Positions 3,377 to 40,409 of a stretch of DNA of 64,000 nucleotides are shown here, in pieces. This DNA comes from an uncultured Planctomycetaceae bacterium (GTDB lineage: Bacteria > Planctomycetota > Planctomycetia > Isosphaerales > Isosphaeraceae). Where the stretch lies: assembly GCA_963833985.1 (NCBI GenBank), contig CAWIAD010000002.1:4672001-4736000 (forward strand), given 5' to 3'. Both the position numbers and the translations under genes were made by a program. How positions within the stretch are numbered: the stretch's first letter is position 1; every line of letters begins with the position of its first letter. Under the pieces are notes generated by a model, which saw nothing but the letters and a program-made list of their open reading frames with translations, made no database searches and was not told where the DNA came from.

Positions 3377-3520
3377 TCGAATCCTCGTGAGTCGAATTAC
3401 GGACACGTTCAAGGCTTTATCCATTCTGCGCAATTTGCTCGCGATCAGAGGAACGTCCCCTTCAGCCTCCTTGTCCCTTTTAGCTTTCACGTACAACGCT
3501 CAGTAGTGCCCCGGTTGGCT

Positions 3521-4151: not shown

Positions 4152-5831
4152 CTACGTGTCTGGCGGGCAGTATCTCGGATCGACTTGCCACATCTGCCAC
4201 TCAAATATGAAAAACGGGGCGACTGACACGGTCCCACGGCTCCGACCGAGCTCCACCAGCTCCCTGGCCAGCACTTCCCACTGCGAATAGCTCAGGTTAT
4301 CATTGGGGCTTCTGCCAGTAGAATCCTTGAAATCATGCCCATAATCCGAGAGCTCGTATGGATTCAGGTTGTACCTCTTGGCCAGTTCCACGATGATCTT
4401 CCATCCCGAGGTCGCACTGAGCGTAGGAGTGGGGCCGGGCCTTGTGGGCGCCTGAGGCGGCACTGGTGGCGACGCCCGCCCAGGCCTGTTATGGCTTGGC
4501 GTCATGCCCTGCACGGGCTCATCCGCCGCCGTTCCACCGCCGCTCATCCCGCTCGGGTCAGTGTAAGCAAGCGGCCGATCAGCCGCATAGCGGTAGACGT
4601 TGTCGTCCCCGGCCGAGAGACCCAGCGGATCCTGCTCCGCAAACCTCCCGACCCCCGCCTCATACCACCTCGCATGGTCATAATACTGCCCAATCGCCGC
4701 ATCCCACTCCATCCCCGTGAACTTGAACCGGTCGCCGTTGGATCCTCCGCTGCTCTCGGAGAGGATATTGCCGTAGCTGTCGTACACGACGTGGTCGATG
4801 CTCGTGCCCGAGGTGCTCACGATGTCGCGCACGCTTCCTAACCTGTCGGCCAGATACCAGGCGGTTGTGCCGCCCGAGCTGGTGCGGGCGAAGAGCTCGT
4901 CGACGGCCGGGCCGGAGACGTATCGGGTGAGCAGCGTGCCGGAGCTGTTGAAGTCGGCGTAGGGGTTGGCGTCGGCGCCCTGGCCGTCGTAAACGGTCCA
5001 CATCTGCGTGCCGTTGGTGTCCACGCCGATGCGGTGATCCAGCGCATCGTAGGTGTACGTCACTTGTTCCAGCGTGGTGCCGCCCGAGTTTTTCTCCACC
5101 GCGCTGGTCATCCGGTTGCGGTCGTCGTAGCCGAAGGTCCAGACGTCGTGAGTGGAGAGCTGCGTCTCGCCGATCGTGTTGCCTTCCTTGTCGTACGTGA
5201 ACGTGTAGCCGCCGCCGGACTTTAGCTCGTTACCCGTGCCGGTGGTGTAACCCGTCATGGTGCGGTTGCCACCCGAGTCATAGCTGTAGTTTTCCGTCCG
5301 CGAGCCGCGGGCGGTCAGTAGTTCACCACCGGAGTCATAGCCGTACGTGACGGTCCCCTCGGCGTTGACCTCGGTGGTCACGCGGTTGGCGTTGTCGTAG
5401 CCATAAACATACGTTGAGAGTGCCGTGCCGGTGCCCGTCTGGTCGGTGATCGTGCCGACACGGTTGGCCGGGTCGTAGACGATCGAGGTGTTCACAGACG
5501 TGCCCGAGCCGCCGATGGTCCGCGAGATTGACGTCTCGCGGTTGCCCGGGTCGTACCCCAGCACCACCTGCGGCCCGGCGCTGCCGTTGTAGCTGGCCGA
5601 GATGTTCGTCAGCCGAAACGCAGGGTCGTACTGGAAGGTCGTCACGCCGACATTCCCCGTGATGTTGTCCGTCAAACTGGTGCGGTCGTGGTACGCGTCG
5701 TAGCCGGAGCTCAATGTCACGCTCGGCTGGTGCGTGCCACCGCCCGACGTCGAGTCGGTCAGCATGTTGCCGGCGGAGTCGTAGGTATGGGTGATGGTAG
5801 CGTAGTTGGTCAAAACAACGACTCCTGACAC
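4152..5831 (-). CDS. Orphan Rhs module 1 (3' core fragment + distinct C-terminal tip)
   Basis: YD repeats nearly identical to the main Rhs; NVYRYAADRPLAYTDPSG core end, then a Pro-rich linker and a small helical domain. Confidence 0.85.
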   Translation of the reverse strand: MSGVVVLTNYATITHTYDSAGNMLTDSTSGGGTHQPSVTLSSGYDAYHDRTSLTDNITGNVGVTTFQYDPAFRLTNISASYNGSAGPQVVLGYDPGNRETSISRTIGGSGTSVNTSIVYDPANRVGTITDQTGTGTALSTYVYGYDNANRVTTEVNAEGTVTYGYDSGGELLTARGSRTENYSYDSGGNRTMTGYTTGTGNELKSGGGYTFTYDKEGNTIGETQLSTHDVWTFGYDDRNRMTSAVEKNSGGTTLEQVTYTYDALDHRIGVDTNGTQMWTVYDGQGADANPYADFNSSGTLLTRYVSGPAVDELFARTSSGGTTAWYLADRLGSVRDIVSTSGTSIDHVVYDSYGNILSESSGGSNGDRFKFTGMEWDAAIGQYYDHARWYEAGVGRFAEQDPLGLSAGDDNVYRYAADRPLAYTDPSGMSGGGTAADEPVQGMTPSHNRPGRASPPVPPQAPTRPGPTPTLSATSGWKIIVELAKRYNLNPYELSDYGHDFKDSTGRSPNDNLSYSQWEVLARELVELGRSRGTVSVAPFFIFEWQMWQVDPRYCPPDT

Positions 5832-6694: not shown

Positions 6695-9600
6695 TTAGAA
6701 TGGGGCGTAGGGTATGTGCTGTCGATTTAAGGACTTCCAGTAAATCTGGTACTTGAAGAAATCGCTCCAAAGACCGGAATTTCTCGCATATTTAGCCAGT
6801 TGTTCCGCCACATACTCGGCGTAGTGCTCCGGGTCGTAGCTTTGCCTGTTCGGGTAGGGCCTTACGTACGGATCGGGAACACCATGTTCGTAGTAATCAT
6901 GGTAACTCTCGTGGAGAAGTGTCTTAACTTGCTGGTTTGGATCCGTGTTGTAGAAAAAATCACTTGATAGATATAGTATTCCACGCTTAGCTCCGGCAAT
7001 GTTCTTTTGACTTGGATCGGAGTAAAGCCGAATCTGCATCTTCGACAGGTGCCCGACAAGGTCAGCATACATTCCCCCCTTATACTCGTCGGGAATTGTC
7101 ACCCAATTAACGGCGGCCATGGCCTGCACCAGCCTCGAGATGTACTGACGTTCGGCCTCGTTCAAAAGTTCGGAATTGGGCTGCGTTACTTTGTAAATCC
7201 CATAAACCACGTAGCTGTAGGCTCTTTCGTACCACGTCAGGTTCTGGCCGGATTGAACCTGTGTCGGAGACTGGTAGCATCCCGTCGGGTCAACGAATAA
7301 GGTTGTGCAGTTACTTACATATGCGTACAGATTTGGTAATTGATCGGATGATCCCAGTGGATCCTCTTGCACAAACCTACCTGCCATCGCCGAGTAGGAG
7401 CGTGCATGATCATAGTACTGCTCGATCGCCGCATCCCACTCCATGCCCGCGAACTTGAACCGATCGCCGTTGGAGCCCCCGCTGCTCTCGGAGAGGATAT
7501 TGCCGTAGCTGTCGTAGACGACGTGATCGATGCTCGTGCCGGACGTATTGACGATGTCGCGAACGCTTCCTAACCTGTCGGCCAGGTACCAGGCGGTTGT
7601 GCCGCCCGAGCTGGTGCGGGCGAAGAGCTCGTCGACGGCTGGGCCGGAGACATATCGCGTCAGTAATGTCCCTGAGCCGTTGAAGTCGGCGTAGGGGTTG
7701 GCGTCGGCGCCCTTTCCGTCGTACACGGTCCACATCTGAGTGCTGTTGGTGTCCACGCCGATGCGATGGTTCAGGGCATCATACGTATACGTTACCTGCT
7801 GGAGCGTCGTCCCGCCCGAATTCTTCTCCACGGCGCTTGTCATCCGGTTGCGATCGTCGTAGCCGAACGTCCAGACGTCGTGAGTCGAGAGCTGCGTCTC
7901 GCCGATCGTGTTGCCTTCCTTGTCGTACGTGAACGTGTAGCCGCCGCCGGAGCTCAACTCGTTGCCCGTGCCCGTGGTGTAGCCGGTCATGTTCCGGTTC
8001 CCACCCGAGTCATAGCTATAGTTTTCCGTCCGCGAGCCGCGGGCTGTCAGTAGTTCACCACCGGAGTCATAGCCGTACGTGACCGTCCCCTCGGCGTTGA
8101 CCTCGGTGGTCACGCGGTTGGCGTTGTCGTAGCCATAAACATACGTTGAGAGTGCCGTGCCGGTGCCCGTCTGGTCGGTGATCGTGCCGACACGGTTGGC
8201 CGGATCGTAGACGATCGAGGTGTTCACAGACGTGCCCGAGCCGCCGATGGTCCGCGAGATTGACGTCTCGCGGTTGCCCGGGTCGTACCCCAGCACCACC
8301 TGCGGGCCGGCGCTGCCGTTGTAGCTGGCCGAGATGGTCGTCAGCCGAAACGCAGGGTCGTACTGGAACGTCGTCACGCCGACATTCCCCGTGATGTTGT
8401 CCGTCAAGCTGGTGCGGTCGTGGTACGCGTCGTAACCGGAAGTCAATGTCACGCTCGGCTGGTGGCTGCCCGGACCCGACGTGGAGTCGGTGAGCTGGTT
8501 GCCACCCGAGTCATAGGTGAAGCTCAGGGTCGCGTAGTTATCCGTGATCTTGGTCAGCTCGTTATCGGCGTTGTAGGTGATCGTGATCAGGTTGGTCGTG
8601 CCGCCGGAGGCGCTGTACCAGGTCTCGCCAGTCTCCTGGCCTCCCAAGTCGTACGAGTACGTCACCACCCGGCCGTTGCGGTCGGTCGAGGCCGTGAGCT
8701 GGTCATCATAGTTGTACAGGTAGGTCGCCGTGTTACCCAGCGGATCGGTCATCGTGGTCAAACGGTCGGCCGAGTCGTAGCCCCAGGTCGTGTGGTTGCC
8801 CAGCGGATCGGTCAGAGTCGTCATCCTCCCGGCCGCGTCATAAGCCATGGTGGTGGTGTTGCCCAGCGGGTCGATGATCGTCGTGGCGCGGTTGTCGGCG
8901 TCGTAGAGCGTGGTCGTCACGTTCCCCAGCGCGTCCTTGACCGTCTGCTGGTTGCCGCCCGAATCGTAGCCGTAGACCGTGGTATGCCCCAGCGCGTCGG
9001 TCACGGTGGTCAACCGGTTCATCGTATCATAAGCATGTTGCGTCGCGTTGCTGTTAGCGTCGGTCATCCCCGTCATGTTGCCCACGCCGTCATAGACGTA
9101 GGTCGTGGTGTGGTTATTGGCGTCGGTGTAGGTGGTCAGCCGGTCGTCCTTGTCGTAATAGAACGATTGCGTCGAGCCCCCGCTGTGCCCGGGGTCCACC
9201 TCCGTCGATTCCTTGCCGGTGGGCGTGTAGGCGTAGGTCGTGATGTTCCCGAGGCCGTCCTCGACCGTCGCCACCCAGCCGCGGTAGTTGTACGCCGTCG
9301 TCGTGATCCGCCCCATCGGGTCGGCGACCTGGATCACCTGCCCCTCGGCGTCGTAGGTCGTGGTCGTCACCGCGTTGGCGCTGGCGGTCAAGGGGGCCGT
9401 GACCACCGTCGGACGGTTGAGGGCATCATACGATATGGACGTGATGCGGCTCATGGGATCGGTGATCTTGATCAGGTTGCCGCCCGAATCGTAACCGTAC
9501 ACCGTCACCCGCGACAGCGGCGCCGTGACGGTCACCGCGCGGTTCATCGCGTCGTAGGAGATGGTCGTCGTGCGCGCGACCTGAAGGGCCGGGGTCGGGT

Positions 9601-12600
9601 CCTGTTCGACGATCAAGTTGCCACCTGAATCGTAGACGTCGGTCGTCCGGTTCGTCAACGGGTCGGTCATGCCCGTCTCGCGGTTCATGGCGTCGTAGCT
9701 GTAGGTCGTCGTGTTCGACCGCTGGTCGGTGACTGACGTCACGTTCCCCTGGTTGTTGTAGCCGTGGAGCACCGTGGTGCCGTCGGGGTTCTGGACGGTG
9801 GTCGCCCGGTCCTGGCTGTCGTACTGAATGCTCGTGGTATGCCCGTTGGCATCCTTGAGCGTGGCCAGCATGCCGTCGCCGGTGTAGGTCATGGTCGTCA
9901 GGTTGCCCATCGGGTCCTGCGTGACCGTCAGGTTGCCGTGGGTATCGTAATCGTAGGTATAGACGTGGTTGTTGGCGTCGGTGAACTGGGTCACCTCGGC
10001 GAAGCTGTTGTAGCTGTACTGGTCGAAGTTCAGGTCGGGGTAGGTGTGCTGGGTGATGTTGCCCTTGCTGTCGTAGGCATACTGGTCGATGCGATTGAGC
10101 CGGTCGATGGTGACGGTGGCCAGGCCCATGGACGCGCCGCTGCCGATGCGGTCAGAGCTGGCCACGTTGCCCAGCGCGTCGACGGCCACGTCGGTCAAGC
10201 CCTGGCCGTTCCAGTCGGGGCGCAGTGTCGTGACGTTGCTGTTGGGGTCGGTATAGTTGCTGGTGGCGGTGGCCAGCGGCACGGCCGCGGTGCCGCCGCC
10301 GGAGGTGACGCTGCTGCTCAGGCCGGCCTCCTGGCTGGGGAAGAACTCCTCGGTGGTGCTGTTATCCGGCCGGGTAATCGTCGAGGCCCGCTCGGCGGAA
10401 TCGTAAGCGACCGTCACGGTCTTCGAGTTCGGGTCGGTCACCTGCGTCATGCGGCCCGAGCCGTCATAGGCATAACCCCAGGTCGAACTGTCGGGGAGGG
10501 TCGCGCCGGTGAGGCTGGATCCGCTGTGGGTGAGGGTGGTGAGCCGCCCGGCCGGGTCCTTGATCGTCTGCAAATATCCACCGCTGTATGAAAACGTCGT
10601 GGTGTTCCCATACGGGTCGGTGATGTTGGTGAGGTTACCGGAGCTGTACGAATACGTGATGTGCAACCCATTGGTGTCGATCGTGGCCGTCTCATGGCCA
10701 CCCGAATCGAAAGTGATCTGGGTGCCGTCTGTGAGGGTCCGTGTGTAGGTGCCGCCGGAGTTCTGCACCAGCGTGGAGAACTCGCCGGGCGGGTCCGTGA
10801 ACGTGCCGCCCCCGCTGCCGAAGCTGCCGCTGAACCAGAGGCTGCGGCCCCCGCTGCCCAGGTCGAGGATCATGCCGCCGGAGGCCGAGGTGATCTTCTC
10901 CAGGCCGGAGACCGACCAGCCGTTGCCGATGGTACTGGAGGAGTCGTTGAGCACCGACATCGTGCCGGTGAGGGTCGTGGTCGTGTTCGTGCTGCGGTAA
11001 TCAACCACGGTGGCCGTGTAGTTGTAGCGCCCGGTGCTCTGCCCGGTCATGTTCGCCTGAAGCGCCATCTGCTGGATGTCGCCGGCCATGAGCTGGCTGG
11101 TGTTATCGTACCAGGTCGAGCCGGTATAGACGGTGGTGCCGCCGGTGGTGGCCACAGAAATCTGGCCGCTGTCCTGGGACGGCAACGTCAGCGTGGGGCT
11201 GAGCGCATGCGGGATGTCGACGATCGGCCGTGGATCGGCGGTCAGCGAGTCATAGGTCAGGGCCACCGCGGGCACGTTGGGGTTGTAACTGGGCAGGTTG
11301 ATGCTGGTATCCAGCGCGCCGCTGGTGGCGTCGACCGACACGTTGTGGCTGACGAAGGCGGGCGCCTGGGGAAGCTCCAGATCCGGTGCCAGCGAGCCTG
11401 GCCAGGTCGGGTCGCCGCCACCGCTCATGCCCGAGCTGGACCCGGCGGGAACGAGGAAGTCATACGTGAACGTCTCGGTATGCGAGTTGGTATCGGTCAC
11501 CGAGAGCGTGACGCTGTTCACGCTGGGCGCGGGGTTGACGCTGCCGTTGCCCCAGGTGAAGGTCAGGTCGTAGCCGGTGGTTCCCGAGACGTGGTTGACG
11601 AGGGTGAGATGAGTCGTGTCCCAGCTGATCGAGCTGACCGTGGTGTTCTCCACCTGGGCGCGGAGATCGACGAACTTGTTGAACGTGGCCAGCTGGTAGG
11701 CGCCCGGGAACATCACCTCACCCTGCGTGTAATCGACCACGTACACGGGGAAATACGTGAACGACCCAAGGCTTGCCCCCGACGAGTTGCCGATCGTCGG
11801 GTCGATGTTGGGATTGATGCCGCCGCCGGAGCTCGACCCCGAGCTCGCCGGCGGTGGCGGCTGGGGTGGAATGGCGCTGGGAGGCGCACCGGCATGGGGC
11901 GGAGGTGAGGCGCCGGGCTCGGGGCTGCCGGCGCCCGGGTTGGGCGTTGGCGGGACAGTGGGCTGAGACGCGCTGGAGGCGGCTGCCAGCAGGGCGGAGG
12001 AGGCCGCCTGGTTGCTGCCGCTCGAACCCGGCGCGGGAACCTTCAGCGGCGTGATCGCGCCGCGGTTTGCAGTAGCCGCTGGCGCACTACCGCCGGCGCC
12101 TGTGCCCAGGTTGATCACCTGCCCGGCCCCCTGGCGCTGCGCCGGATGCCAGGGAGGCGTGATGCCTGTCTCACCGTTCGAGGCCGGGCTTTGCAGGGGT
12201 AGCAGGCTTAGCCAGTCGCCCGGCGCCGCTGGCGCCGGCACGATGGAGACGGGAACGAGGCCTTGTGCATTGCCCGCGCCGCCGGTTGTTCGCGGCCGCG
12301 CCGCGGCGGAGTTGAGAAAAGTCGCCGCTCGCGCCGTGGTGCCGGCGCTCGCGGGGGCATTCTGTCCAGGAGTTGCACCGCCTCCCCGGCCCGGCCGGGC
12401 CGCGGTGCCGGCAAGCTGCGCCTTGCTCGCCGCCGACAGACCCAGGAGGGAATCCAACCCCAGGGGCAGCCCCATGCTCAGCGCCGTCAGACTGATCGGT
12501 TCCGTGATCATTATCCGGAGCTCGCACTGTTCCAGGCGATCGAACTTCCTGGCCATGCGGGCACGTCTTCGCTCGGTGAAGCTGAGGCGGTGCTTGCTCA

Positions 12601-12658
12601 GGATGCGTTCCTTCGGCCCGGCGCGGACCGATCCCGTGGCCCACCGGGCCCGGTCCAT
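6695..12658 (-). CDS. Full-length Rhs/YD-repeat polymorphic toxin with LEPR-XLL-like N-terminus and HExxH metallopeptidase-like tip
   Basis: RRRARMARKFDRLEQCELRIMIT leader; Pro/Ala/Ser linker; many YD repeats; NLYAYVSNCTTLFVDPTG; tip contains TLLHESYH. Confidence 0.92.
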   Translation of the reverse strand: MDRARWATGSVRAGPKERILSKHRLSFTERRRARMARKFDRLEQCELRIMITEPISLTALSMGLPLGLDSLLGLSAASKAQLAGTAARPGRGGGATPGQNAPASAGTTARAATFLNSAAARPRTTGGAGNAQGLVPVSIVPAPAAPGDWLSLLPLQSPASNGETGITPPWHPAQRQGAGQVINLGTGAGGSAPAATANRGAITPLKVPAPGSSGSNQAASSALLAAASSASQPTVPPTPNPGAGSPEPGASPPPHAGAPPSAIPPQPPPPASSGSSSGGGINPNIDPTIGNSSGASLGSFTYFPVYVVDYTQGEVMFPGAYQLATFNKFVDLRAQVENTTVSSISWDTTHLTLVNHVSGTTGYDLTFTWGNGSVNPAPSVNSVTLSVTDTNSHTETFTYDFLVPAGSSSGMSGGGDPTWPGSLAPDLELPQAPAFVSHNVSVDATSGALDTSINLPSYNPNVPAVALTYDSLTADPRPIVDIPHALSPTLTLPSQDSGQISVATTGGTTVYTGSTWYDNTSQLMAGDIQQMALQANMTGQSTGRYNYTATVVDYRSTNTTTTLTGTMSVLNDSSSTIGNGWSVSGLEKITSASGGMILDLGSGGRSLWFSGSFGSGGGTFTDPPGEFSTLVQNSGGTYTRTLTDGTQITFDSGGHETATIDTNGLHITYSYSSGNLTNITDPYGNTTTFSYSGGYLQTIKDPAGRLTTLTHSGSSLTGATLPDSSTWGYAYDGSGRMTQVTDPNSKTVTVAYDSAERASTITRPDNSTTEEFFPSQEAGLSSSVTSGGGTAAVPLATATSNYTDPNSNVTTLRPDWNGQGLTDVAVDALGNVASSDRIGSGASMGLATVTIDRLNRIDQYAYDSKGNITQHTYPDLNFDQYSYNSFAEVTQFTDANNHVYTYDYDTHGNLTVTQDPMGNLTTMTYTGDGMLATLKDANGHTTSIQYDSQDRATTVQNPDGTTVLHGYNNQGNVTSVTDQRSNTTTYSYDAMNRETGMTDPLTNRTTDVYDSGGNLIVEQDPTPALQVARTTTISYDAMNRAVTVTAPLSRVTVYGYDSGGNLIKITDPMSRITSISYDALNRPTVVTAPLTASANAVTTTTYDAEGQVIQVADPMGRITTTAYNYRGWVATVEDGLGNITTYAYTPTGKESTEVDPGHSGGSTQSFYYDKDDRLTTYTDANNHTTTYVYDGVGNMTGMTDANSNATQHAYDTMNRLTTVTDALGHTTVYGYDSGGNQQTVKDALGNVTTTLYDADNRATTIIDPLGNTTTMAYDAAGRMTTLTDPLGNHTTWGYDSADRLTTMTDPLGNTATYLYNYDDQLTASTDRNGRVVTYSYDLGGQETGETWYSASGGTTNLITITYNADNELTKITDNYATLSFTYDSGGNQLTDSTSGPGSHQPSVTLTSGYDAYHDRTSLTDNITGNVGVTTFQYDPAFRLTTISASYNGSAGPQVVLGYDPGNRETSISRTIGGSGTSVNTSIVYDPANRVGTITDQTGTGTALSTYVYGYDNANRVTTEVNAEGTVTYGYDSGGELLTARGSRTENYSYDSGGNRNMTGYTTGTGNELSSGGGYTFTYDKEGNTIGETQLSTHDVWTFGYDDRNRMTSAVEKNSGGTTLQQVTYTYDALNHRIGVDTNSTQMWTVYDGKGADANPYADFNGSGTLLTRYVSGPAVDELFARTSSGGTTAWYLADRLGSVRDIVNTSGTSIDHVVYDSYGNILSESSGGSNGDRFKFAGMEWDAAIEQYYDHARSYSAMAGRFVQEDPLGSSDQLPNLYAYVSNCTTLFVDPTGCYQSPTQVQSGQNLTWYERAYSYVVYGIYKVTQPNSELLNEAERQYISRLVQAMAAVNWVTIPDEYKGGMYADLVGHLSKMQIRLYSDPSQKNIAGAKRGILYLSSDFFYNTDPNQQVKTLLHESYHDYYEHGVPDPYVRPYPNRQSYDPEHYAEYVAEQLAKYARNSGLWSDFFKYQIYWKSLNRQHIPYAPF

Positions 12659-16545: not shown

Positions 16546-17553
16546 TTAGAAGGGCGGCTCGATCATCTCGGATCCCGACCTGGTCCCGAGCGCCTGCCAC
16601 ACCCGTGACGAGACCGTATTTGAAACCCAGTGGACAGCGCCGTCGGCTGTCGCAACACTTACTCCGCCCCTGTGCATGCTGCGGGCGGGATAGATGCCGG
16701 ACTCGGAACTCCCCATTGGTGGGAACTGTGCGTCCGCGCCGCCGCAATCAAACCACGCGCTGTTTGGTGTGAAAATGTGGTTGTACGAAGTCGTGTCGTA
16801 GCCGCATACCGCCCAGGACCAACCACCCGAGCAATAGAAGGAAGAAGAAGAGCCGGGCCCGCTCTGACACGCGGCAATCTCATCGCCGACAGATTGGTAC
16901 GCCCCGATGCCTGCCCTCCATGAATCGCGAGCCGGGTCCGGACGCCTGAGGTCGCCGGACCCGAGCAGCCGCTCCGAGAGCATGGCGGTCGTGGAGAGAC
17001 CATCGGTGACCTGCGCCGGGCTCACCCACTGGTAGATCTCGAACACCCCCAGCCGATTCACCTCCTGCGGGGACGGGAACGTGCCAATCTGCGAGCCCAT
17101 GCAGACTCTATAATCTACCGGCCCATTCGGCGTGGGCGACGGATTGCCGTCGGAGGGGCACAGGAATACCGAGAGGGTTACAGACATGAACGTCGCCTGC
17201 TCTGGCCACGACTCCGTGCCCGCCGACTGCCCGGACTGAAAGTTGATGGAATCGAAAATGGGCCTCAGCTCGAGATCGGCCAGTACGTGAGTGAACGCCG
17301 AGTAATCATTGCCGCGAAAGGTCGCCGTGGGGAGCTGGATGGGCATTCCCTGAGCTGGAAACCTCCCCTCCCGGGTCTGGTAAGAGTGCATGGCCAGCGT
17401 GATCTGCCGCAGGTTGTTGACGCACTGCGCCACTCGTGCCGATTCCCGGACCGCCTGCACCGCTGGCAACAGAAGAGCGATCAACAGCCCCAGAACCAGA
17501 ATCACGACCAGCGTTTCGACGAGGGTCAATGCAGAGCAAGGACGCAGTCTCAT
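16546..17553 (-). CDS. DUF1559 family prepilin-type (PulG-like) protein with H-X9-DG motif
   Basis: ALTLVETLVVILVLGLLIALLLPAVQAVRESARVAQCVNNLRQI; FLCPSD; SMHRGGVSVATADG. Confidence 0.92.
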   Translation of the reverse strand: MRLRPCSALTLVETLVVILVLGLLIALLLPAVQAVRESARVAQCVNNLRQITLAMHSYQTREGRFPAQGMPIQLPTATFRGNDYSAFTHVLADLELRPIFDSINFQSGQSAGTESWPEQATFMSVTLSVFLCPSDGNPSPTPNGPVDYRVCMGSQIGTFPSPQEVNRLGVFEIYQWVSPAQVTDGLSTTAMLSERLLGSGDLRRPDPARDSWRAGIGAYQSVGDEIAACQSGPGSSSSFYCSGGWSWAVCGYDTTSYNHIFTPNSAWFDCGGADAQFPPMGSSESGIYPARSMHRGGVSVATADGAVHWVSNTVSSRVWQALGTRSGSEMIEPPF

Positions 17554-17566
17554 TCCACTCGTATGG

Positions 17567-18633
17567 CTATTCTCGATTCTCACCGCTTTTGCCCTCCGGA
17601 AAGCTCGGAGTCCAGCCCTTGATCAGCAGAGGTACATTGAAGCTGGTTGCCTCCGAGGCGGACAGCTCAACGGAAAGCGTCCCCATGGCATCGCCGCTCC
17701 CCGACGGAAACATGAGGTCGAAATCGAGGGTCGCGAGTCCATCTCCGGCCTTGGTGGCAGACAGGTTTGTCAGGACCCACGGAGGTGAAGTCGTGATTGA
17801 CCTCGCGACCAAAGTGTCGCCCGGGGAACTGGACCTCACCAGCAGCTTGCGGTGGATGATGCGCCCGATGTCGTCCTTGTCGACCTCAATCTGAGAAGGA
17901 GTGCATTGGAACGGACCGGAGACCGTCACAGTGAACGGAATCATAACGAGGAAGGCCTTCTCGTCGTCGGTTACGATATAAATGGTCCCACGGTGGACAC
18001 CGAGCGCCCGTCCCGCACGAAATATCACAGAAACTCTGTGAAACTGGAGACTAACGTCGGCGCTCTCAGCCGTCGCGTCGATGTCGGGGACGTCAGTCGT
18101 GATGTTCTTGATCGTGAAGTCCTTTTTCCCCGGCGAGTAGACCTCGACAATCCACGTTCTGTTCTGTCCGAGAGGGATTTCTCCAGCATCAATCGCCTCC
18201 GGCGACGTCCGCAACCCTAACCACCCCTCGGCGAAAAGGTGGATCTCGGTACGGGGCGCGCGGGGTCGTTGGCGTCGATCGATACGAAGTGCTGCACGTT
18301 CGCGGGGGCCGGCGGGAGATCGAACTCGACTTTCAGGTCAGTGCTCTCTCCGGGTGCAAGTGACGAAACCAAGAGATGGGGCCTGGTGCACCCGCATGAT
18401 GACCCAACTTTGTCAAATACTAGGGCTGCTGAACCTTGATTACTGATACGAAACACTTTTTCCAAATGGGAGCCAGGCGGGTGTTTTCCCCAGTTCCACG
18501 AGTCCCGGTCGAGCACCATTCTGGGACTGCCCGGGCGCTTGGCCCCAACCGAAACCGCCCAGATTGATAGCAGGAGGCAAAGGGAGCCAACCGCGAACAA
18601 TGCGGATAACAGGTGCCGCTTGGAGCCGAGCAT
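17567..18633 (-). CDS. DUF1573 domain (Ig-like) exported protein; frameshift near 18254 joins the two track ORFs
   Basis: N-terminal hydrophobic segment; FRISNQGSAALVFDKVGSSCGCT...LAPGESTDLKVEF. Adding one C in a C-run gives a continuous PRTEIHLFAEGWLGLRTSPE into ORF 17567..18214. Confidence 0.8.
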
Positions 18634-18675
18634 TGTGACCTCACCGATGGAGCTTGGAGCGCAGGTCGGCCGCCG

Positions 18676-19212
18676 TCAGCTGCCTGACGCGCCCCCGGTC
18701 ACCCGCGCGATTCCGCCAATCACGATCGCCTCGCCTCCCCACACACCCGCCAGCGCACGCCAGGAGAGACGCCTGGGTTCGGATGGAGGGTCGAGAACGA
18801 TAACAGTTCCGTCCGCGCAGGGGAACGCCGCCACGAAGTGCGTCCCACTGACGAAGAGGATCATGGGTTCGCGGGGGCGGCCAGGGTTGCTCGGATCAAA
18901 GCGAAGCGCCCGTGCCGAAAAGTCGCGCTCGCGCAGCGCCCTCAGAATGTCGGTGAACGAGCAAAATCCGTTCTCGCCGAGCCGGACCATGTCGCGTGCT
19001 TCCGCGAGGCCGACGGGACGCCCCAGGTAACCGGTCACGGCAGCGATGCAGACCGGACCGCAGCTTTCCTCCGTCCTCGTGCGTTGGTTGAACATCAAGG
19101 CAGCCCCAGCGGGCCCGCCGCGTCCGCGCAGGCCGACGACGAATCCAAGCGCCAGGACACCGCCCGTGAGAAGCGCAAGCAGGTCCGCGCGTCGTAGCGT
19201 TCGCCCGAGCAT
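18676..19212 (-). CDS. Stand-alone peptidase C39 family protein with N-terminal membrane anchor/signal
   Basis: Cys-His-Asp triad in C39 contexts: Q...ESCGPVCIA, GTHFV, VLDP, plus WGGEAIVI; no ABC transporter domains. Confidence 0.85.
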   Translation of the reverse strand: MLGRTLRRADLLALLTGGVLALGFVVGLRGRGGPAGAALMFNQRTRTEESCGPVCIAAVTGYLGRPVGLAEARDMVRLGENGFCSFTDILRALRERDFSARALRFDPSNPGRPREPMILFVSGTHFVAAFPCADGTVIVLDPPSEPRRLSWRALAGVWGGEAIVIGGIARVTGGASGS

Positions 19213-19351
19213 GTCGAAGCGATCCTTTTCCGGGTTGAGTTGTACAAGTCATCGCGGCACCGATGTCACCGCATCCGGCTGTCCTCGTCCTGCCAGCTCA
19301 TGCGCCCGACGGCTCCCCATTTGCCATGACGGCATCGACGTAGGGCACGAG

Positions 19352-20440
19352 TCAGCGGTGGGAGGTGTGATCTCTCCAGCGGACCGCGGCCACGACCGCG
19401 GCGACGAGGAGCAGCGCCCCCACGGCCGCAAGAGCCCAGGCTGCGAGGGCTGGGCTCACTGTGAAAGGCCCAGGTTTCCCTCCATTCGACTCGGTGTCCG
19501 AGAGCTCGGACTGGAGCTTCTTGATCTTCTCGATCTGAGCGCTAATGGAGCTGTCAGTCACTCGCTTCACAACGAACGCAGGCCCCCCCTTGATCTTGTC
19601 GGAGAGAAGCGTGCCGTCAGGAAAGTCGAGCTGGAACGTGTCGGGCTTGAGCGTCCGGTTCACCGCCCAGTCGGTGAGGTCCAGTGTGAACTCGTGCATG
19701 AGCTCATAACCACCGTCGTCGTAGTACCCGTGACTGACATGGTGGACCTGCGACGGGACCCAGAGCGGCCCGTAGCGGACAAAGCCTTTGCTCTTGGTTT
19801 CGTGCCCGGGCTTCCAGTCGAGGCCTGCCTTGGGACGAAAGCTGGTGATGTTGCTAACAACCGCGAAGCCGTAGGAGGGCGCAACCAGGATGCTGCCTCT
19901 AAACAGGCTCCCGTCGGGCAGCGCGTGACTTGACTCCCAGATCAATTCCACGACCCGAGTCCCCTCCGCCTCCCCGGTACTCCCCATGTTGAGCGGCACT
20001 TCCTCGTAGAACTTGGGCACCGACCAGGTGTTCAGGTTCAGCAGCTCAGCAGGCTGGGCGGGCAGAGGTACGCCCAGTTCCCGACGCCTCGTTCCGGTGA
20101 TCCCATACTTACCTCCAGCCGGCTCCTTCTCGACGGTGATCGACCTGTACTCCTTGTCAATAACGATGATCTCGTGGGAGCCAGACTTATCGAGTTGCTC
20201 GATCCGTTTACGGTCCGAACGATCCAGCAGAAACTTGAATTGTTGGACATACTCTTTCAGAGGAGCGCCCCTGATAATCCTGCGCTGACCGTGGGCCTCG
20301 GCCTGAAACTGGAGGTTCTGGAAGGCGGCCTGGCGCGCCAACAAACCCGCCTTGATCTCGTCGAGGGTGTAGTCAGCCTTCGGATCTTCGAACGTCCCCG
20401 CACTAATAGCAAGGATGCAGACCAGTAGCCAAGCAACCAT
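19352..20440 (-). CDS. Exported protein, possible LolA-like fold, C-terminal membrane anchor
   Basis: GGAGGAG RBS; signal peptide MVAWLLVCILAISAG; LWVP...VNRTLKPDTFQLDFPDG motif; C-terminal hydrophobic helix followed by RWR. Confidence 0.65.
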   Translation of the reverse strand: MVAWLLVCILAISAGTFEDPKADYTLDEIKAGLLARQAAFQNLQFQAEAHGQRRIIRGAPLKEYVQQFKFLLDRSDRKRIEQLDKSGSHEIIVIDKEYRSITVEKEPAGGKYGITGTRRRELGVPLPAQPAELLNLNTWSVPKFYEEVPLNMGSTGEAEGTRVVELIWESSHALPDGSLFRGSILVAPSYGFAVVSNITSFRPKAGLDWKPGHETKSKGFVRYGPLWVPSQVHHVSHGYYDDGGYELMHEFTLDLTDWAVNRTLKPDTFQLDFPDGTLLSDKIKGGPAFVVKRVTDSSISAQIEKIKKLQSELSDTESNGGKPGPFTVSPALAAWALAAVGALLLVAAVVAAVRWRDHTSHR

Positions 20441-20766
20441 GACGCACTCCTCTCCGAAAAAGAGCCGCCGGGTCACGGGCATGGAACAAGCAGGGTTCTT
20501 AGCTTAGAGCCCTTCTCGATTCCCGCGATGCATTGCGGTCGAAGCCTGGCTCGAACAGTTCACCCCACATCGCCGCTCGTTTGGGGCGGCCGCCCGCCTC
20601 CGGTCCGTCGAGAGCGGTCGACACAGGCGCCGTAGGCCAGGCTCGCCGATCGTCGACATGCGCCATGGTGACGTTCGTCGGATACGCCATCCGTGGGGGC
20701 CTGGGCGACGGTCCTTCCAGCGTCCAACCCGTCCAGTTGTGGCGCGCTCGGCCCCGGAACGCGTCG

Positions 20767-21213
20767 TCAATGAATCATATCGCAGTCGTATAGCTCGGCA
20801 CCACACTGCTGCGAGTTTCCGTTCAGGCAGCTTGCGGGGCAACCGTTCGGGCCCGGGGCTGTGGAATAAACTGTCCCGCAGAGCTGTTTTTTGTCGGTTT
20901 GCGTGCATCCCATCGGGAAAGTCTGAGTCGGGTTGTTGCAGAGGAACTGGCTCATGGTCACCAGCGAGTAGCAAGTGCCTCCGTAGTTTACGCAGAAGAA
21001 GGTGTAATTGCCACACGCCGGATTGCCTTGGGTGCCGCACACGTCGCTCTTGCACATGCAGTTCTGGTTCATGTGCATGCACTCACCGCCAATGATCCCG
21101 AGACACTCCTTCTCGCTCATCGGAATGGGGGCATGGGAGGAACCGTCTGCCGTGATGGGCACGAGCAAGCAGACCGTCACGACGAGGGCTGCTGCGAGCA
21201 TTGCAAATCGCAT
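20767..21213 (-). CDS. Secreted Cys-rich precursor: Sec signal + double-glycine leader + 105-aa core with 14 Cys
   Basis: ATG at 21213 with GGAG RBS; MRFAMLAAALVVTVCLLVPITADG signal; MSEKECLGIIGG matches the LSxxELxxIxGG consensus. Confidence 0.8.
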   Translation of the reverse strand: MRFAMLAAALVVTVCLLVPITADGSSHAPIPMSEKECLGIIGGECMHMNQNCMCKSDVCGTQGNPACGNYTFFCVNYGGTCYSLVTMSQFLCNNPTQTFPMGCTQTDKKQLCGTVYSTAPGPNGCPASCLNGNSQQCGAELYDCDMIH

Positions 21214-21359: not shown

Positions 21360-21482
21360 GAAAAAATTTGAATAATGAAATCCCCAAATCCCCGCTACCC
21401 TTTTGCGGGAAGTAGGTTTGTCGTAGGGGACGTAAAGCCAAGGCGAAGCGGTCCGGTCCGCCAAAGACGCACGCGACGTGAG

Positions 21483-23282
21483 CTAAGGTGTCGGGCCGAT
21501 TCGGGCCGGCCGAACGTTATTCCTCCCGGGTAGCACCACCAGCCGGTACCTGGGCGCGGGGCCGCGCTGGCCTTCTCGATCCGGCCCCGCTTCAGGCGGT
21601 GCAGCCAGCCGCGCGTCGCCCAGGCGGAGCGCACCAGCCCGGCCTGGCCGAAGAGCTGGTACATGATGCGGAACTTCCAGAGGGCATCGACGGTGAGGAC
21701 CGCCTTGAGTGCCCGCAGCGGATTGTAGAAGCACGCGTAGGCGATGAGTATATTGATCTGCTTGCGCCAGGGATGCCGGCTCCGGCTGGCAATCGTGTGG
21801 TTGCCGTCGAACTGGTAATCGGCGACATCCAGGCTGCCGACCCGGCTCATCACCTGGCCTTCCTCGAACGTCCGCTTGTACGCCTTCGAGCCGACCATGG
21901 GCGTCAGGAATGTGATCTGCACGCTCACCGCCCCGGCGCGCTTGAGGTACTGGATCTGGTTGAGCAGGCCAGCCAATCCCCGGCGCGAGACCAGCGGCTG
22001 GTCGTCGTGGTGCATCATCATCGGCATCGGTGCAATGCCGTGGTCCAGCAAATTGCGGAATACCTTGCGCGTCTTCTCGGGGCTCTGGCCCTTCTTGACC
22101 AGCTCGGCGGTCATGTCCTCGATGCCGAACCAGATCGCCCGGATGCCGGCGTCGCGTGCCAGCGGCATGAGGTCGGCGCAGCGGTCGACGTCGTGCTCGG
22201 TCCCCTCGGTGCCAATCCACACCGAATCGCGGAACGGCCGGCCGGCGATGGTGCCGCGGGCCATGGTCGTCAGGATCGATCCGGCGGCCTCATGATTGTT
22301 GAAGAAGTTGTCGTCTGTCCCGAAGAAGCTGTCGATCCCCGTGCGCTCGACCATGCCGGAGATCTCCGCCGCCAGCCGATCCGGGCCGCGGAAGCGGAAG
22401 GTGCCCTGGTTGTAGGCGTGGATCGGGCAGTAGGGACAGTGAAACTTGCAGCCGTGCGTCATGATCAGCGGCAGGATCCTGGCGTGGCGCCGCAGGCGGT
22501 CGGCGGGGACCGGCCGGTCGTCGAGCCCCTCCTGGCGATGCGGCCGCTCGAACATCCCCAGGGCGTCAAAGGGGAACGGCAGCTCGTCCAGGTCTTGCAC
22601 CAGGCGCTGGGTGCCGGTGTTCACCAGCTCGCTCACGTGACCGCCTTGCGGATCGCGGCGGTAGACCAGGCCGGGAATGTCCTCCAGCGCGCCCGCGGGC
22701 CGGGCTCGCTCGAACGCTTGCCGCCAGCTCTCGTGGAAGCCCTTGAACTCCAGGAGCCGGTCCAGCAGCTCCAGAAGCACGAATTCCTCACCCGTCACCA
22801 CCAGGTCCGCCCCGCGCTGGCCGTCCGGGCCCAGGCCGAAGAAGTCCCATGGCTCGTAGATCGCCTTGGCTCCGCCAGCCAGGATGAGCGGGCGATCCGC
22901 GCCGCAGCGCATGGGCGTCCTCGATGAGCCGGTAGGCCGAGGCGCTGTGGATCTGCATGCTCGAGACGAGCAACAGCTCAGGGGGCCGGCCGCCCAGCCG
23001 TGCCTGGCTGGGCCGGAAACGAGGATTCCACTGCTGGAGCACAACGCGGATGTTGCGGAAGCCGGCGCCCGCCAGCGCGGACGGCACGGCCAGGGGTGCA
23101 CCCGGGATGAGCTGCGTGTCCACGAACACGAACGGCCCCAGGCGGGTGCGCTGGTCGAAGGCGTTGACATGGAGCACCGGTGTCTCACCGGCCGCAACAC
23201 CGCTTCGAATCTGGCGTTCTAACTCCTGGTAACGACCCGGCCGGGTGAACTGGTCACCCTTCGGACGCCCTGGCAATTCCAT
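21483..23282 (-). CDS. B12-binding-domain radical SAM protein; frameshift near 22908 and possibly near 21560
   Basis: CKFHCPYC cluster motif, GTDDNF, WFGIED. The N-terminal part (ELLLVSSMQIHS) in ORF 22788..23297 joins RPLILAGGAKAIYEP in ORF 21395..23200. Confidence 0.85.
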
Positions 23283-25473: not shown

Positions 25474-26445
25474 TTATTCGCCAGGCTTGCCGCGTGAATC
25501 GGTCACCGAAGCCCAGGGCGGAAAGTCCAGCTCGAACGAGCCGGGAGGAGTGGCCATGTTCACCTTCACATCCGAGATCGTGATCTGATCGATCGTCTTG
25601 TCGAAGAGGTTGACCCGGCGGATGGTCCTGGGAAACCAGTAGCCGTCCACTTCCTGGAGTTCATAGTCAGCGCGCGCCCAGGGAGCCTCTGGAGTTCCGT
25701 TCTGCCAGGTGGCGCGGAGCACCGCGTCCTTGTGTGGATCGTAGACAACGACGATCGTGCTCTCTCCGTCGCGCTCGGGAACCGAGATCGTCCAGAGGCC
25801 GTGGTCCTCGTTGATCGTGGGCCTCCGGTTCGACCTGAGTCCCGTCCGGATCAGGCCGGAGAGCCGCTCGCCCAGATGACACGGCGGCATCTCGCCGAGA
25901 CCGCAAACGAGACGGAAGGAGTGGAACTGGCTGTTCTCCTGGCCGGGCCGGTAAAGCCGGCCTCGACCCGGGTCATCCCCGCGCTGGGGTGGAACTCGGG
26001 GCAGCGTCTTGCCAGGCGCGGTGTAGTTCAGGTCGCGGCAGAAGAGGCCGTCGAACGACCAGGTGTTCCGCTCCGCGACGTGGTCGTTGATGCCCTGAAC
26101 CCACCGCATCACCGAGTCCAGGTCCACGCGGTAGCGGCCGGAGAAGTGCTCGATCATGACTTGCCCGTGGTGCCGGACCGGTCCAAAGCTCGCCTTTTCC
26201 GGGCGAGCCGGGTCCTCGACCTTCCCCTGGCGGAAATCCACGGTCCAGCGCAGCGCCTGGACCCGGGGCTCCTGTGCCTCGATCGTTGCCAGTGCCTTGT
26301 TGACGTCGATGTCGCTGCCTGTACCGGTGCCGGCGCCGGCTGCGGCCGGCAGACCCAGGCATGCCGCGGATAGCAGGTAAGAAGAATAGAGCAGGTAAAG
26401 AAGAATGGCGCTGGGCCGTACGCTTCTCGGGTCTGGAGTCGGCAT
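25474..26445 (-). CDS. Exported protein, possible LolA-like fold
   Basis: Hydrophobic signal; C-terminus YWFPRTI...DVKVNMATPPGSFELDFPP resembles the 19352..20440 protein. Confidence 0.6.
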   Translation of the reverse strand: MPTPDPRSVRPSAILLYLLYSSYLLSAACLGLPAAAGAGTGTGSDIDVNKALATIEAQEPRVQALRWTVDFRQGKVEDPARPEKASFGPVRHHGQVMIEHFSGRYRVDLDSVMRWVQGINDHVAERNTWSFDGLFCRDLNYTAPGKTLPRVPPQRGDDPGRGRLYRPGQENSQFHSFRLVCGLGEMPPCHLGERLSGLIRTGLRSNRRPTINEDHGLWTISVPERDGESTIVVVYDPHKDAVLRATWQNGTPEAPWARADYELQEVDGYWFPRTIRRVNLFDKTIDQITISDVKVNMATPPGSFELDFPPWASVTDSRGKPGE

Positions 26446-26589
26446 CGGATTGGCTCCGCGAATCGTACGAAGGGTCGGTCCAGCGGACTGGCTCAGGCAT
26501 TTTAACCGCGCCGTCGAGGCGAATCTATGACTTTTGTCGCAGTAGGAGCGCGGAGCGGACCACCTCGTCAACAGGAGGAGCGCGGGGCT

Positions 26590-33735: not shown

Positions 33736-36240
33736 ATGCCGAAGATCCAGGCCACCTGGGCAGTCGATATCGGCCAGGCCGCGCTCAAGGCATTGAAGCT
33801 CGTACCGGGTCCCAATCCGGACGAGGTTGTGGCCGAGGCCTTCGACTTCATCGAGTATCCCAAGATCCTGAGCCAGCCGGACGCCGATCCCGAGGAGCTC
33901 GTCCGCGAGGCGCTGGCCACCTTCACCGACCGTAACGATGTCGAGGGGTGCAAGGTGGCGATCGCGGTCCCCGGCCAGGCGGGGCTCGTGAAGTTCATCA
34001 AGCTTCCTCCGGTCGAGAAGAAGCGGATCCCCGACATCGTCAAGTTCGAGGCCAAGCAGCAGATCCCCTTCGCGCTCGACGAGGTCGTCTGGTCGTACCA
34101 GCAGATCGGCGGCGACGACGAGGCGAGCGACGAAGAGTTCACCATGGCGGAGGTGGGCCTGTTCGCGATGAAACGCGACCAGATCACCCGCGCCATCCTC
34201 CCCTTGACCGTGGCGGGCATCGAGGTCGACATCGTCCAGATGAGCCCGATCGCCCTGTACAACTACATCTGCTTCGACCAGCTCAAGGCGAGCGGCTCGA
34301 AAGACTCGGTCGTGGTGCTGGACATCGGGGCGGACAACACCGACCTGATCATTACCGACGGCACCCGGATCTGGCAGCGCAACGTGCCCATTGGCGGCAA
34401 CCACTTCACCCGTGCCCTGACCAAGGAGCTCAAGCTCACCTTCGCCAAGGCCGAGCACCTGAAGCGCAACGCCACCAAGGCACCCGATCCACGGGCCATC
34501 TTCACGGCCATGCGGGGCGTCTTCAACGACTTCACCAGCGAGGTGAACCGCTCGATCGGCTTCTACATGAGCATCAACCGGACCGCGAAGATCCGTAAGG
34601 TGCTCGGTCTGGGCAACGGGTTCAAGCTGCCCGGCCTTCAGAAGTTTCTCCAGCAGAACCTCAACCAGGAGATCGAGAAGGTTGACAGCTTCGCCAAGCT
34701 GGCCGGCGACGAGGTGAAGGCCGCCCCGCAGTTCCAGGACAACATGGCGTCATTCGCGGTGGCTTACGGGCTGGGCTTGCAGGGTCTGGGCAAGAGCGGA
34801 CTGGCCACCAACCTGCTGCCGCCGGAGATCGAGCGGATCCGGCTGGTCCGGGCCAAGAAGCCCTGGGCGCTGGCGGCCTCGGCCCTGGTGATGCTGGGCC
34901 TGAGCTCGCTCTTCCTGCTGGGACCCTACCGGCTTCTGGCCAAGGTCTCCACGCCCCAGTTCAAGACGGCCGTGGAGCGGGCGACGTCGGTGACCAAGAA
35001 GGGCAACGAAATCAAGACGCAGCTCGACGCGGCCAAGGGCGAGTGGCAGAACAAGTACGATGAGGGCACGGCGCTGATCATCGACCCGACGAACAAGGCG
35101 CTCTGGCCCGCCTTCCTGAAGACCGTGAGCGGTTACTTCCCCGATCCGGTCACCGAGTACAAGCTCAACCCGGACGAACCGGCGAACCAGGAAGTCCTCG
35201 AGAAGCTGCGCGTGCACATCGACCTGATCAAGCCGGTCTGGCGGACGGACGTGGCCGCCGGCTGGTTCGACCTGCTCGACCCGAAGTTCAAGCGGCTCAT
35301 GCATCCCTTCGACGCGGACACGGCGAACGCGCCCTCCGGCGAGGGCTGGATCGTCCAGATTGCCTGCCATCATTACAACCCGTATCCCTCGCGGGAACAG
35401 ATGGCCTTGCCGCTTACGGACCCGCGCCGCACCGAGTACGGGCCCTACCAGTTCATCACCGCGAAGGTGCTGCACAGGCTGAACTCCCCGTCCCTGCGGC
35501 TCTATGGCGTGAGCCACGTGGCCCTCGCCTGGATGTCGATCGACCGCGAGTGGACGAGCGAGAAAGGGAGCAGCAACAACAACCTCGCGAGCAGCACGGT
35601 GCCCGTTCTGGACCGCGCCCCGCCGCCGGCTTCGGACGCTTCCGGGGGTGCCTCCGGGGCGAGTGCCAGCGCCATGGGCAACAGCCAGATGGCCGGCTAC
35701 GCCTCGCGGATGCAGGGCGGTGCGGGCATGGGGGCCGGTTACGCCTCATCCGTCGGTGGCATGAGCCAGATGGCGCGCGGCATGATGGGCCCCCGCGGTG
35801 CCGGCATGATGGGTGGCTCGATGGGCGGCTCGCGGGCGGCCGCCGAGGCCAAGAAGGACCTCAAGACGCTGACGCGAACCGATTTCCTCATCCAGTTCCT
35901 GTGGAAGCCCACACCGCCGGAGGACCTGCCCGAGGATCCCGAGCAGCGCAAGGCCAAGCTGGAGGAACAGGCCGCCAAGGTGAAGGACTGGTTTGAGAAG
36001 ATGGGTCAGGCCGAGAAGGCCAAGAACAACGCGGCCGTGACGATTCCCAGCGCCGAGGAAATCGAGAAGGCCTCCAAGCAAAAGACAACGGAACTCGACG
36101 CCGCCATCTCCAAGGCGCTCAGCGCGATCGCCGCCCCTGGCGACGCGGCCGCCGGAGTGGGCGGGGCTCCGGCCGCACCCGGATTGCCCGGCGCGGTTGC
36201 CCCACCGGCCGCACCCGCGGCGGGCGCGACACCGAAGTAA
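33736..36240 (+). CDS. pilM: Type IV pilus assembly protein PilM with fused TM/PilN-like C-terminal region
   Basis: WAVDIGQAALKAL, VKFEAKQQIPF, VLDIGADNTDL, IGGNHFT, NLLPPE followed by a TM helix. Confidence 0.88.
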   Translation: MPKIQATWAVDIGQAALKALKLVPGPNPDEVVAEAFDFIEYPKILSQPDADPEELVREALATFTDRNDVEGCKVAIAVPGQAGLVKFIKLPPVEKKRIPDIVKFEAKQQIPFALDEVVWSYQQIGGDDEASDEEFTMAEVGLFAMKRDQITRAILPLTVAGIEVDIVQMSPIALYNYICFDQLKASGSKDSVVVLDIGADNTDLIITDGTRIWQRNVPIGGNHFTRALTKELKLTFAKAEHLKRNATKAPDPRAIFTAMRGVFNDFTSEVNRSIGFYMSINRTAKIRKVLGLGNGFKLPGLQKFLQQNLNQEIEKVDSFAKLAGDEVKAAPQFQDNMASFAVAYGLGLQGLGKSGLATNLLPPEIERIRLVRAKKPWALAASALVMLGLSSLFLLGPYRLLAKVSTPQFKTAVERATSVTKKGNEIKTQLDAAKGEWQNKYDEGTALIIDPTNKALWPAFLKTVSGYFPDPVTEYKLNPDEPANQEVLEKLRVHIDLIKPVWRTDVAAGWFDLLDPKFKRLMHPFDADTANAPSGEGWIVQIACHHYNPYPSREQMALPLTDPRRTEYGPYQFITAKVLHRLNSPSLRLYGVSHVALAWMSIDREWTSEKGSSNNNLASSTVPVLDRAPPPASDASGGASGASASAMGNSQMAGYASRMQGGAGMGAGYASSVGGMSQMARGMMGPRGAGMMGGSMGGSRAAAEAKKDLKTLTRTDFLIQFLWKPTPPEDLPEDPEQRKAKLEEQAAKVKDWFEKMGQAEKAKNNAAVTIPSAEEIEKASKQKTTELDAAISKALSAIAAPGDAAAGVGGAPAAPGLPGAVAPPAAPAAGATPK

Positions 36241-40348: not shown

Positions 40349-40409
40349 GCGATCGGCTCGCACCCGAAGGGCCTGGCACTCCCGCTGCCAGGCCGCTTGA
40401 TCACGCTGC

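Follow-up and report, generated by a model that had tools for sequence, protein, structure and literature searches.

In the literature searched, as far as its accessible text goes, double-glycine leaders are cut by C39 peptidases that belong to ABC exporters and act on their cytoplasmic side. PCAT proteases read leader positions -12, -8, -7, -4 and the double glycine, according to the available portions of two studies (PMC6363468; PMC6959990). FapD of the Pseudomonas Fap amyloid system, the one periplasmic C39 in that literature, is an active precedent; in the accessible part of the source its target is unclear and it has no established substrate (PMC5557850). The window analyzed here, a 64,000-nucleotide stretch of planctomycete DNA, contains a cassette of five genes within 16546..21213, and all five were located on the minus strand, co-oriented as the first-pass annotation had claimed. 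The cassette shares with the PCAT/AMS exporters (LahT, 6MPZ; PCAT1, 4RY2/6V9Z; ComA) the C39 family with its Cys-His-Asp triad and a leader of the form L(-12)xxxE(-8)L(-7)xx[VLI](-4)xG(-2)G(-1). In contrast to those exporters, its C39 has neither a transmembrane pore nor an ABC ATPase and is likely periplasmic, its leader sits behind a Sec-type signal rather than being the sole export signal, and its partners are DUF1573, LolA-like and pilin-like proteins. Like FapD, the protease is a stand-alone C39, apparently exported past the cytoplasm and encoded beside Sec-exported proteins. However, the Fap proteins lack a canonical leader in the available text on that system, while the cassette has a canonical leader and a membrane-anchored protease; no Fap families were found among the Pfam/NCBIfam matches of the cassette and flanking proteins. 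Our main reading, to which we give a probability of roughly 60%, is that of a five-gene accessory cassette: Sec would export a cysteine-rich precursor, a membrane-anchored, periplasm-facing C39 would cut it after Gly43, and the cut would release a 105-residue core that becomes disulfide-bonded.

The precursor gene (20767..21213, minus strand, as are all features below) has a ribosome-binding site upstream and encodes 148 residues. The order and counts claimed for its product, a Sec-type signal, a GG motif and a 105-residue core with 14 cysteines, were borne out by the sequence. The hydrophobic N-terminus (residues 1-22; 21148..21213) was scored by a hydropathy heuristic as a Sec-type signal or anchor with a possible cut after Ala22, and no lipobox was seen in the precursor. 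It is followed by MSEKECLGIIGG at residues 32-43 (21085..21120) and by the predicted mature core (20770..21084). The leader assignment is based on a profile and on a match to the register of PCAT leaders, with Met at -12, Ser at -11, Glu at -8, Cys at -7, Ile at -4 and Gly at -2 and -1. Measured against the LSxxELxxIxGG pattern that the first-pass annotation cites for C39 leaders, the register is kept at -12, -8, -4 and the double glycine, but not at -7, where Cys replaces Leu. The same Cys occurs in the precursors of loci L111 and L172, and the L111 precursor is the nearest relative of the window precursor (32% over 88 residues, E 2e-10). On an independently trained leader profile the window precursor scored 4.4 bits, under the 5-bit mark. 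No homologs of the precursor were found in the database by word-seeded search or in the Atlas, and the core had no Pfam, NCBIfam or Atlas match. An AlphaFold model of the core was uninformative (pLDDT 41.9) and was left out of the fold search. A promoter and terminator scan of the locus gave signal at chance level.

Related cassettes were collected from 80 of the 124 matches of one search, with 5 more of the 124 taken in later, and from 20 of the 34 matches of another. Across Planctomycetia the cassette is found in two forms, with both the C39 and the leader or without either; its core set comprises the precursor, LolA-like, DUF1573 and DUF1559 genes, to which the C39 and the leader are added as an optional module. 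Among the loci of the C39-less form is L317, from Tundrisphaera sp. TA3. Cassettes with a C39 carry precursors with a signal, a double-glycine leader and a cysteine-rich core, as anticipated, while those lacking it are leaderless. With a profile trained on loci separate from those scored, 35 of the 47 precursors accompanied by a C39 (74%) reached the 5-bit mark and 12 fell under it, compared with 1 of the 19 without a C39; shuffles of the same stretches reached it in 6%. Median scores were 10.4 and -6.2 bits, respectively, and the distance from the hydrophobic stretch to the first cysteine pair was 36 and 14 residues. Among held-out loci, the mark was reached by 5/6 precursors with a C39 and 1/4 without. 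The main count leaves out L070, L078 and L093 (broken N-terminus, leader-like stretches visible), L119 (broken), L074 and the training row L022, and six precursors of undefined C39 status were kept apart. Within the source genome, leader precursors are present in three C39 cassettes, while a canonical leader is absent from five cassettes lacking the C39, of which one is ambiguous. A scan of this genome for orphan genes combining signal, leader and cysteine-rich core returned two cassette precursors and otherwise implausible candidates. Kinship weakens the co-occurrence: 14 of the 18 C39-less cassettes on the tree form one clade, the C39 changes state five times, and the only three supported independent pairs, each either concordant or tied, give p 0.25 in a sign test. 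C39 cassettes without an adjacent precursor also exist (7/55, and likewise L021 and C2:212860). Because the double-glycine tag is present with the protease and absent without it, the C39 likely trims the precursor outside the cytoplasm.

The leaderless precursors also bear on a reading in which the N-terminus is an uncleaved anchor and the C39 serves as a private signal peptidase that sheds the core in one step, signal peptidase I taking its place in C39-less cassettes; the C39 cut would be that of the main reading and only the first step would differ. Leaderless cores follow the signal directly, and strong AxA-type signal peptidase sites were seen in 23/72 leader-bearing precursors against 10/19 leaderless ones. 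In the L082 precursor, moreover, the leader helix is lost and the hydrophobic stretch continues directly into VRG. However, the difference in AxA sites is not significant (p 0.11), a weaker acceptable site is still found in 57/72 leader-bearing precursors, and the window precursor has Ile-Thr-Ala at residues 20-22. We consider one-step shedding unlikely.

Conservation of the GG motif among precursor homologs was checked in 72 precursors, in which the sites were picked by the profile itself, so that the counts are partly circular. Gly at -2 was kept in 70 of them. Leu, Val or Ile stood at -12 in 64/72, Leu at -7 in 42/72, Val, Leu or Ile at -4 in 53/72, and Gly, Ala or Ser at -1 in 50/72; the remaining 22 have large or polar residues at -1. 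The cores are about 60-130 residues long, their net charge ranges from neutral to acidic with a median of -2.5, and 86% of the precursors have an even number of core cysteines. Leaderless and leader-bearing cores were compared for shared ancestry, which is not claimed here: their cysteines align, but the window core, when scored with a profile built from 14 leaderless ones, reached -8.8 bits, no higher than shuffles. Class II double-glycine bacteriocins have a small, usually cationic core. Double-glycine leaders are typical of bacteriocins, and the cores here are variable in an accessory cassette of patchy distribution, so that the product might be a diffusible bacteriocin-like antimicrobial with the partners as export or immunity factors. 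The acidic median charge and the length of the cores, 105 residues in the window, argue against this, as do the absence of matches to NCBIfam bacteriocin models (0/25 cores) and of any recurring small immunity gene among the cassette neighbors. An antimicrobial role is therefore improbable in our view.

The C39 gene (18676..19212) encodes 178 residues matching PF03412 (E 1.6e-14) and, by Pfam, has no ABC domain; together with its N-terminal anchor, this agrees with the earlier description of the protein. Alignment places the catalytic triad at Cys51, His125 and Asp141, and the best solved relative is the LahT protease domain (6MPZ). Across 89 C39s, the triad is kept at Cys in 84, His in 87 and Asp in 80. 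Hydropathy alone indicates an N-terminal hydrophobic stretch in 55 of the 66 cassette C39s, and a signal with a C-terminal membrane helix in 43 of the 66. Since most have this signal and C-terminal anchor, the cassette C39s likely face the periplasm. The window C39 has only the N-terminal anchor, flanked on either side by basic residues, and its orientation therefore rests on its relatives. The C39 is fused to DUF1573 in 16/66 cassettes, and among 149 further relatives seven are fused to DUF1573 and four to a LolA-like domain; a Walker A motif was found in 1 of the 149 nearest relatives. Of the two-step maturation put forward by the first-pass annotation, the periplasmic C39 is thus supported by hydropathy topology and by these fusions.

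Compared with PCAT/AMS leaders, -1 is more variable and Arg is frequent at -3 in the cassette precursors. The leader groove of the C39 is possibly changed as well. In a profile alignment, PCAT1 Ala55 stands opposite Met, Leu or Phe in 74/89 C39s and Ile59 opposite mostly polar residues, which reads as a change, whereas in pairwise alignment of the window C39 the counterpart of Ala55 is Ser85 and that of Ile59 is Leu90, which reads as similar. A changed groove would suit a C39 that holds the leader helix in a chaperone role or has a different cassette protein as its target, leaving the precursor uncut at the double glycine. The large or polar -1 residues point the same way, as do the second domain without catalytic Cys in 106 of the 119 tandem-C39 relatives, the unclear target of FapD and the C39 cassettes lacking a precursor. 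On the other hand, the catalytic Cys and Gly(-2) are conserved at the frequencies given above, and the first domain is of the active type in 115 of the 119 tandem forms, which makes a non-cutting C39 quite unlikely. We think it very improbable that the leader is read in the cytoplasm by a regular PCAT exporter from another locus, with the neighboring C39 incidental. In favor of this, the genome encodes one C39 within an 1861-residue open frame (C1:2977141) that is probably a PCAT, and many relatives possess one as well. Against it, a hydrophobic signal precedes the leader, the leader accompanies the cassette C39 within one genome that has a single such exporter, and some cassette C39s occur as fusions with DUF1573 or with LolA-like domains.

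The LolA-like gene (19352..20440; frame open from 20482) probably starts at 20440, where there is a ribosome-binding site (database call, 362 residues), and encodes a signal and a C-terminal membrane helix. Taken alone, it had no Pfam match, and word-seeded search returned no homologs. A model of the family (pLDDT 82.9) matched LolA-superfamily structures: 9TP6 (LolA3 of Porphyromonas gingivalis) was the top match (E 2e-7; Z 16.8, rmsd 3.6, 214 aligned), followed by 4Z48 (DUF1329; Z 16.6), 3BK5 (Z 16.4) and 3BUU (NE2245; Z 14.2). The LolA-like identity assigned earlier is supported by this model comparison, although identity is about 10% and the cassette protein differs in its C-terminal tether.

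Pfam also recovered the two remaining genes expected. DUF1573 (PF07610; 17567..18633; E 1.4e-14) is an Ig-like protein broken into two frames near 18265. The intact L111 homolog spans both pieces, and 13/72 full-length DUF1559 loci of the same assembly are likewise split, so that the break is probably an assembly frameshift from a sequencing indel; programmed frameshifting was rejected, since L111 is intact and L006 breaks at another place. A Cys pair (CxC or CC) is present in 77/82 cassette DUF1573s, as CGC (Cys80-x-Cys82) in the window, in a region also spanned by a below-cut-off match to OS_HP2 (NF041425; E 1.2e-8). It sits at the site of the UGC motif of the selenoproteins that this family includes, according to the accessible parts of the sources (PMC9312934; PMC13188914). 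Compared with those selenoproteins, the cassette forms share the Ig-like domain with CxC but use Cys instead of Sec, often as vicinal CC and sometimes fused to C39. The conserved pair suggests a role in disulfide handling. DUF1559 (PF07596; 16546..17553; frame open from 17583; E 2.3e-32) shares a prepilin-like N-terminus and an H-X9-DG end with the Planctomycetes paralogs described in the available text of PMC10632474. Its N_methyl score was 16.5 bits against a cut-off of 21.2, and its prepilin site has Ala at -1 and Ala-Leu for the Gly-Phe found in 53/76 cassette copies. Cassette copies form their own clades in the tree, while most of the approximately 95 DUF1559 matches in the genome lie outside such cassettes. 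A PilM/secretin locus lies 12 kb from the cassette and was not counted as support. A rule of one pilin per precursor was rejected, as the DUF1559 arrays L360 and L361 carry no precursors.

In Bacteroidota, DUF1573 and C39 neighborhoods may occur with small secreted Cys-rich NVEALA-type proteins, possibly following the same logic. Bacteroides thetaiotaomicron, used in search controls, has both families, and the literature search found no paper with the term NVEALA.

Taken together, cleavage at the double-glycine site in the periplasm is, judged from sequence, the part of the main reading that we hold with good confidence. Somewhat short of an even chance is the idea that the DUF1573 Cys pair makes or rearranges the disulfides of the core, with the membrane-bound LolA-fold protein keeping hold of it. 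It is a tentative suggestion that delivery of the finished core to the surface falls to the DUF1559 pilin, via type IV pilus/type II machinery, the core being a variable surface or secreted protein and not a cationic antibiotic. Equally speculative is the whole as an assembly line at the inner membrane that makes hypervariable proteins knotted by disulfides, with a bacteriocin-type leader and protease moved from an ABC exporter to the periplasm, a Cys-pair Ig folder, a tethered LolA-fold holder and a dedicated DUF1559 pilin displaying the product on the cell surface. Neither the cassette nor a route of periplasmic double-glycine trimming was found in the open literature searched. The cassette pairs a C39 that likely faces the periplasm with a substrate and a cleavage position, both predicted, and offers no fewer than 90 natural disulfide-rich scaffolds with several Cys frameworks. 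It also opens a way into two long-unexplained planctomycete families, DUF1559 and DUF1573, which would acquire defined cargo and partners if the assembly-line reading is true.

The five-gene cassette is real and recurrent. At the window locus (16546..21213), all five co-oriented genes claimed by the first-pass annotation were present on the minus strand, and the identities of three products were borne out by Pfam matches to Peptidase_C39, DUF1573 and DUF1559. The first gene encodes the precursor as proposed, a 148-aa protein whose hydrophobic N-terminus precedes MSEKECLGIIGG (aa 32-43) and a core of 105 aa with 14 Cys. The DUF1573 gene was broken in two near 18265. Of the 72 full-length DUF1559 loci in the same assembly, 13 were split as well, and an intact homolog extends across the break; a sequencing indel is therefore the probable cause. 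The GC3 of the cassette (0.67-0.76) was lower than that of neighbouring genes (0.83-0.87). In all 13 genus genomes examined, the flanking lipoprotein gene had no DUF1559 gene closer than 1.5 kb, which marks the cassette as accessory. In the family, 47 of 105 genomes yielded cassette-type DUF1559 at a strict threshold, as did 29 of 201 across the class, and more distant C39 cassettes were present in other families of the class. Two related C39 cassettes of the source genome, 10 kb apart (G000:C2:3293300-3306900), are set among duplicated host-gene fragments, as if recently mobile.

Immediately upstream of the cassette, in the same orientation, lies an apparently frameshifted B12-type radical SAM gene (21395-23200, minus strand), which was not a recurrent neighbour in our survey of cassette loci. 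An orphan LolA-like paralog (25474-26571, minus strand) has a signal, no C-terminal helix and no adjoining precursor. A type IV pilus/type II locus with PilM and secretin genes (33736-45693, plus strand) lies 12 kb from the cassette. On the minus strand, a 1987-aa RHS-repeat protein with a HEXXH-like C-terminal stretch (6695-12658) precedes two partial RHS ORFs whose ends differ (4152-5831 and 1763-3496); these genes look like a polymorphic toxin array. The RVT_1 reverse transcriptase (53585-54946, minus strand) is probably a group II intron.

A leader profile was trained on 25 precursors from loci selected via their C39, and precursors from separate loci selected via their DUF1559 were scored. 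In the first batch of 80 DUF1559-selected loci, 55 encoded C39, with a recognisable precursor in 48 and none in 7. Homologous cassettes did carry double-glycine leaders: 35 of 47 precursors with C39 scored at least 5 bits, in contrast to 1 of 19 without it, although Fisher and rank tests overstate this difference because most of the C39-less set belongs to a single clade (from which its DUF1559 anchor was also built) and independent pairs are few. The sole C39-less match falls inside the Cys core, and shuffled sequences attained 5 bits in 6%; 40 of the 47 precursors with C39 reached at least 3 bits. The stretch from signal to first Cys pair measured 36 aa with C39 and only 14 aa without, and in held-out loci the leader was present in 5/6 and 1/4, respectively. 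The tree contained five C39 state changes and no discordance among the three independent pairs that were supported (p = 0.25); L366, from a different family, added another C39-less, leaderless case. No C39 remnants were seen in C39-less loci (best E 0.19), some of which lie near contig ends. The source genome holds both states, with three C39 cassettes bearing leaders, one C39 cassette without a precursor, and five C39-less cassettes without a canonical leader.

Counted back from GG (-2, -1), positions -12, -7 and -4 of the leader consensus are hydrophobic, a register also read by PCAT proteases, according to PMC6363468 and PMC6959990. The GG motif was checked across precursor homologs, and Gly occupied -2 in 70/72; position -1 was other than G/A/S in 22/72. 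The window precursor scored 4.4 bits and has Cys at -7. Among variant loci, G000:C2:212860-215778, L021 and L076 have DUF1559, LolA-like and C39 genes but lack a precursor gene at its usual position, L033:11397-13824 has a tandem pair of near-identical leader-bearing precursors with a single C39, and in L360 and L361 cassette-like DUF1559 genes form tandem arrays that contain no precursor.

The window C39 retains Cys51, His125 and Asp141, which were conserved in 84, 87 and 80 of 89 related domains, respectively. Among solved structures, the LahT double-glycine protease (6MPZ) was the best match to the family profile. Signal peptides and topology were assigned by hydropathy throughout. A signal plus C-terminal membrane helix, which would place the enzyme in the periplasm, was found in 43/66 cassette C39s, and 16/66 run on into DUF1573; the window C39 has an N-terminal anchor only, without the C-terminal helix. 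Among the best 149 relatives, 7 were fused to DUF1573, 4 to a LolA-like domain, and 119 were tandem C39 proteins. The large signal-C39-TM(-TM)-C39 family (P0008-P0156) lacks the catalytic Cys in the second domain in 106 of these 119, and that domain is possibly a leader-binding module. For the PCAT1 groove residues Ala55 and Ile59 the alignments disagree: both positions look altered on the family alignment, yet not on pairwise alignment with the window C39.

Homology search found no close homolog of the second gene product. Its LolA-like assignment is nevertheless supported by a predicted family model from an 84-sequence alignment (pLDDT 82.9), which gave Z scores of 16.4-16.8 against LolA3 of P. 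gingivalis, DUF1329 and 3BK5. CxC or CC was present in DUF1573 of 77/82 cassettes, and a UGC selenoprotein form of DUF1573 appears in review tables (PMC9312934 and PMC13188914); together these hint at redox chemistry. Structure prediction yielded no usable fold for the 105-aa window core. Since the cores are neutral to acidic, with several Cys frameworks and variable loops, their sequences would be more in keeping with surface or recognition proteins than with cationic antibiotics. PMT/ArnT-like membrane glycosyltransferases adjoin cassettes of both states at 10 examined loci other than the window locus (L003, L032, L033, L035, L094, L099, L103, L146, L179 and G000:C2:472560-478300), and glycosylation of some cores is therefore possible.

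A search of open-access literature, supplements aside, turned up no account of the cassette, and PMC10632474 describes DUF1559 as a family without known function. We propose that Sec would carry the precursor across the inner membrane, where C39 would bind the leader helix and then cut after Gly43, a predicted step that is well supported. This step would work like that of the PCAT protease; however, the cassette is not itself a PCAT, having no pore or ATPase and a Sec-type signal ahead of the leader. The predicted location of C39 resembles that of FapD, whose target is unclear according to PMC5557850. In contrast to the cassette precursors, Fap proteins are without canonical leaders according to the same source. 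The freed core would form up to seven disulfides, possibly with the aid of DUF1573; the tethered LolA-fold protein would hold it, and the DUF1559 pilin may take it outward. Signal peptidase I may act before C39; the difference in its strong sites between leader-bearing and leaderless precursors gave p = 0.11. Because C39-less cassettes retain the other four genes, the leader and protease would constitute an optional release or timing module.
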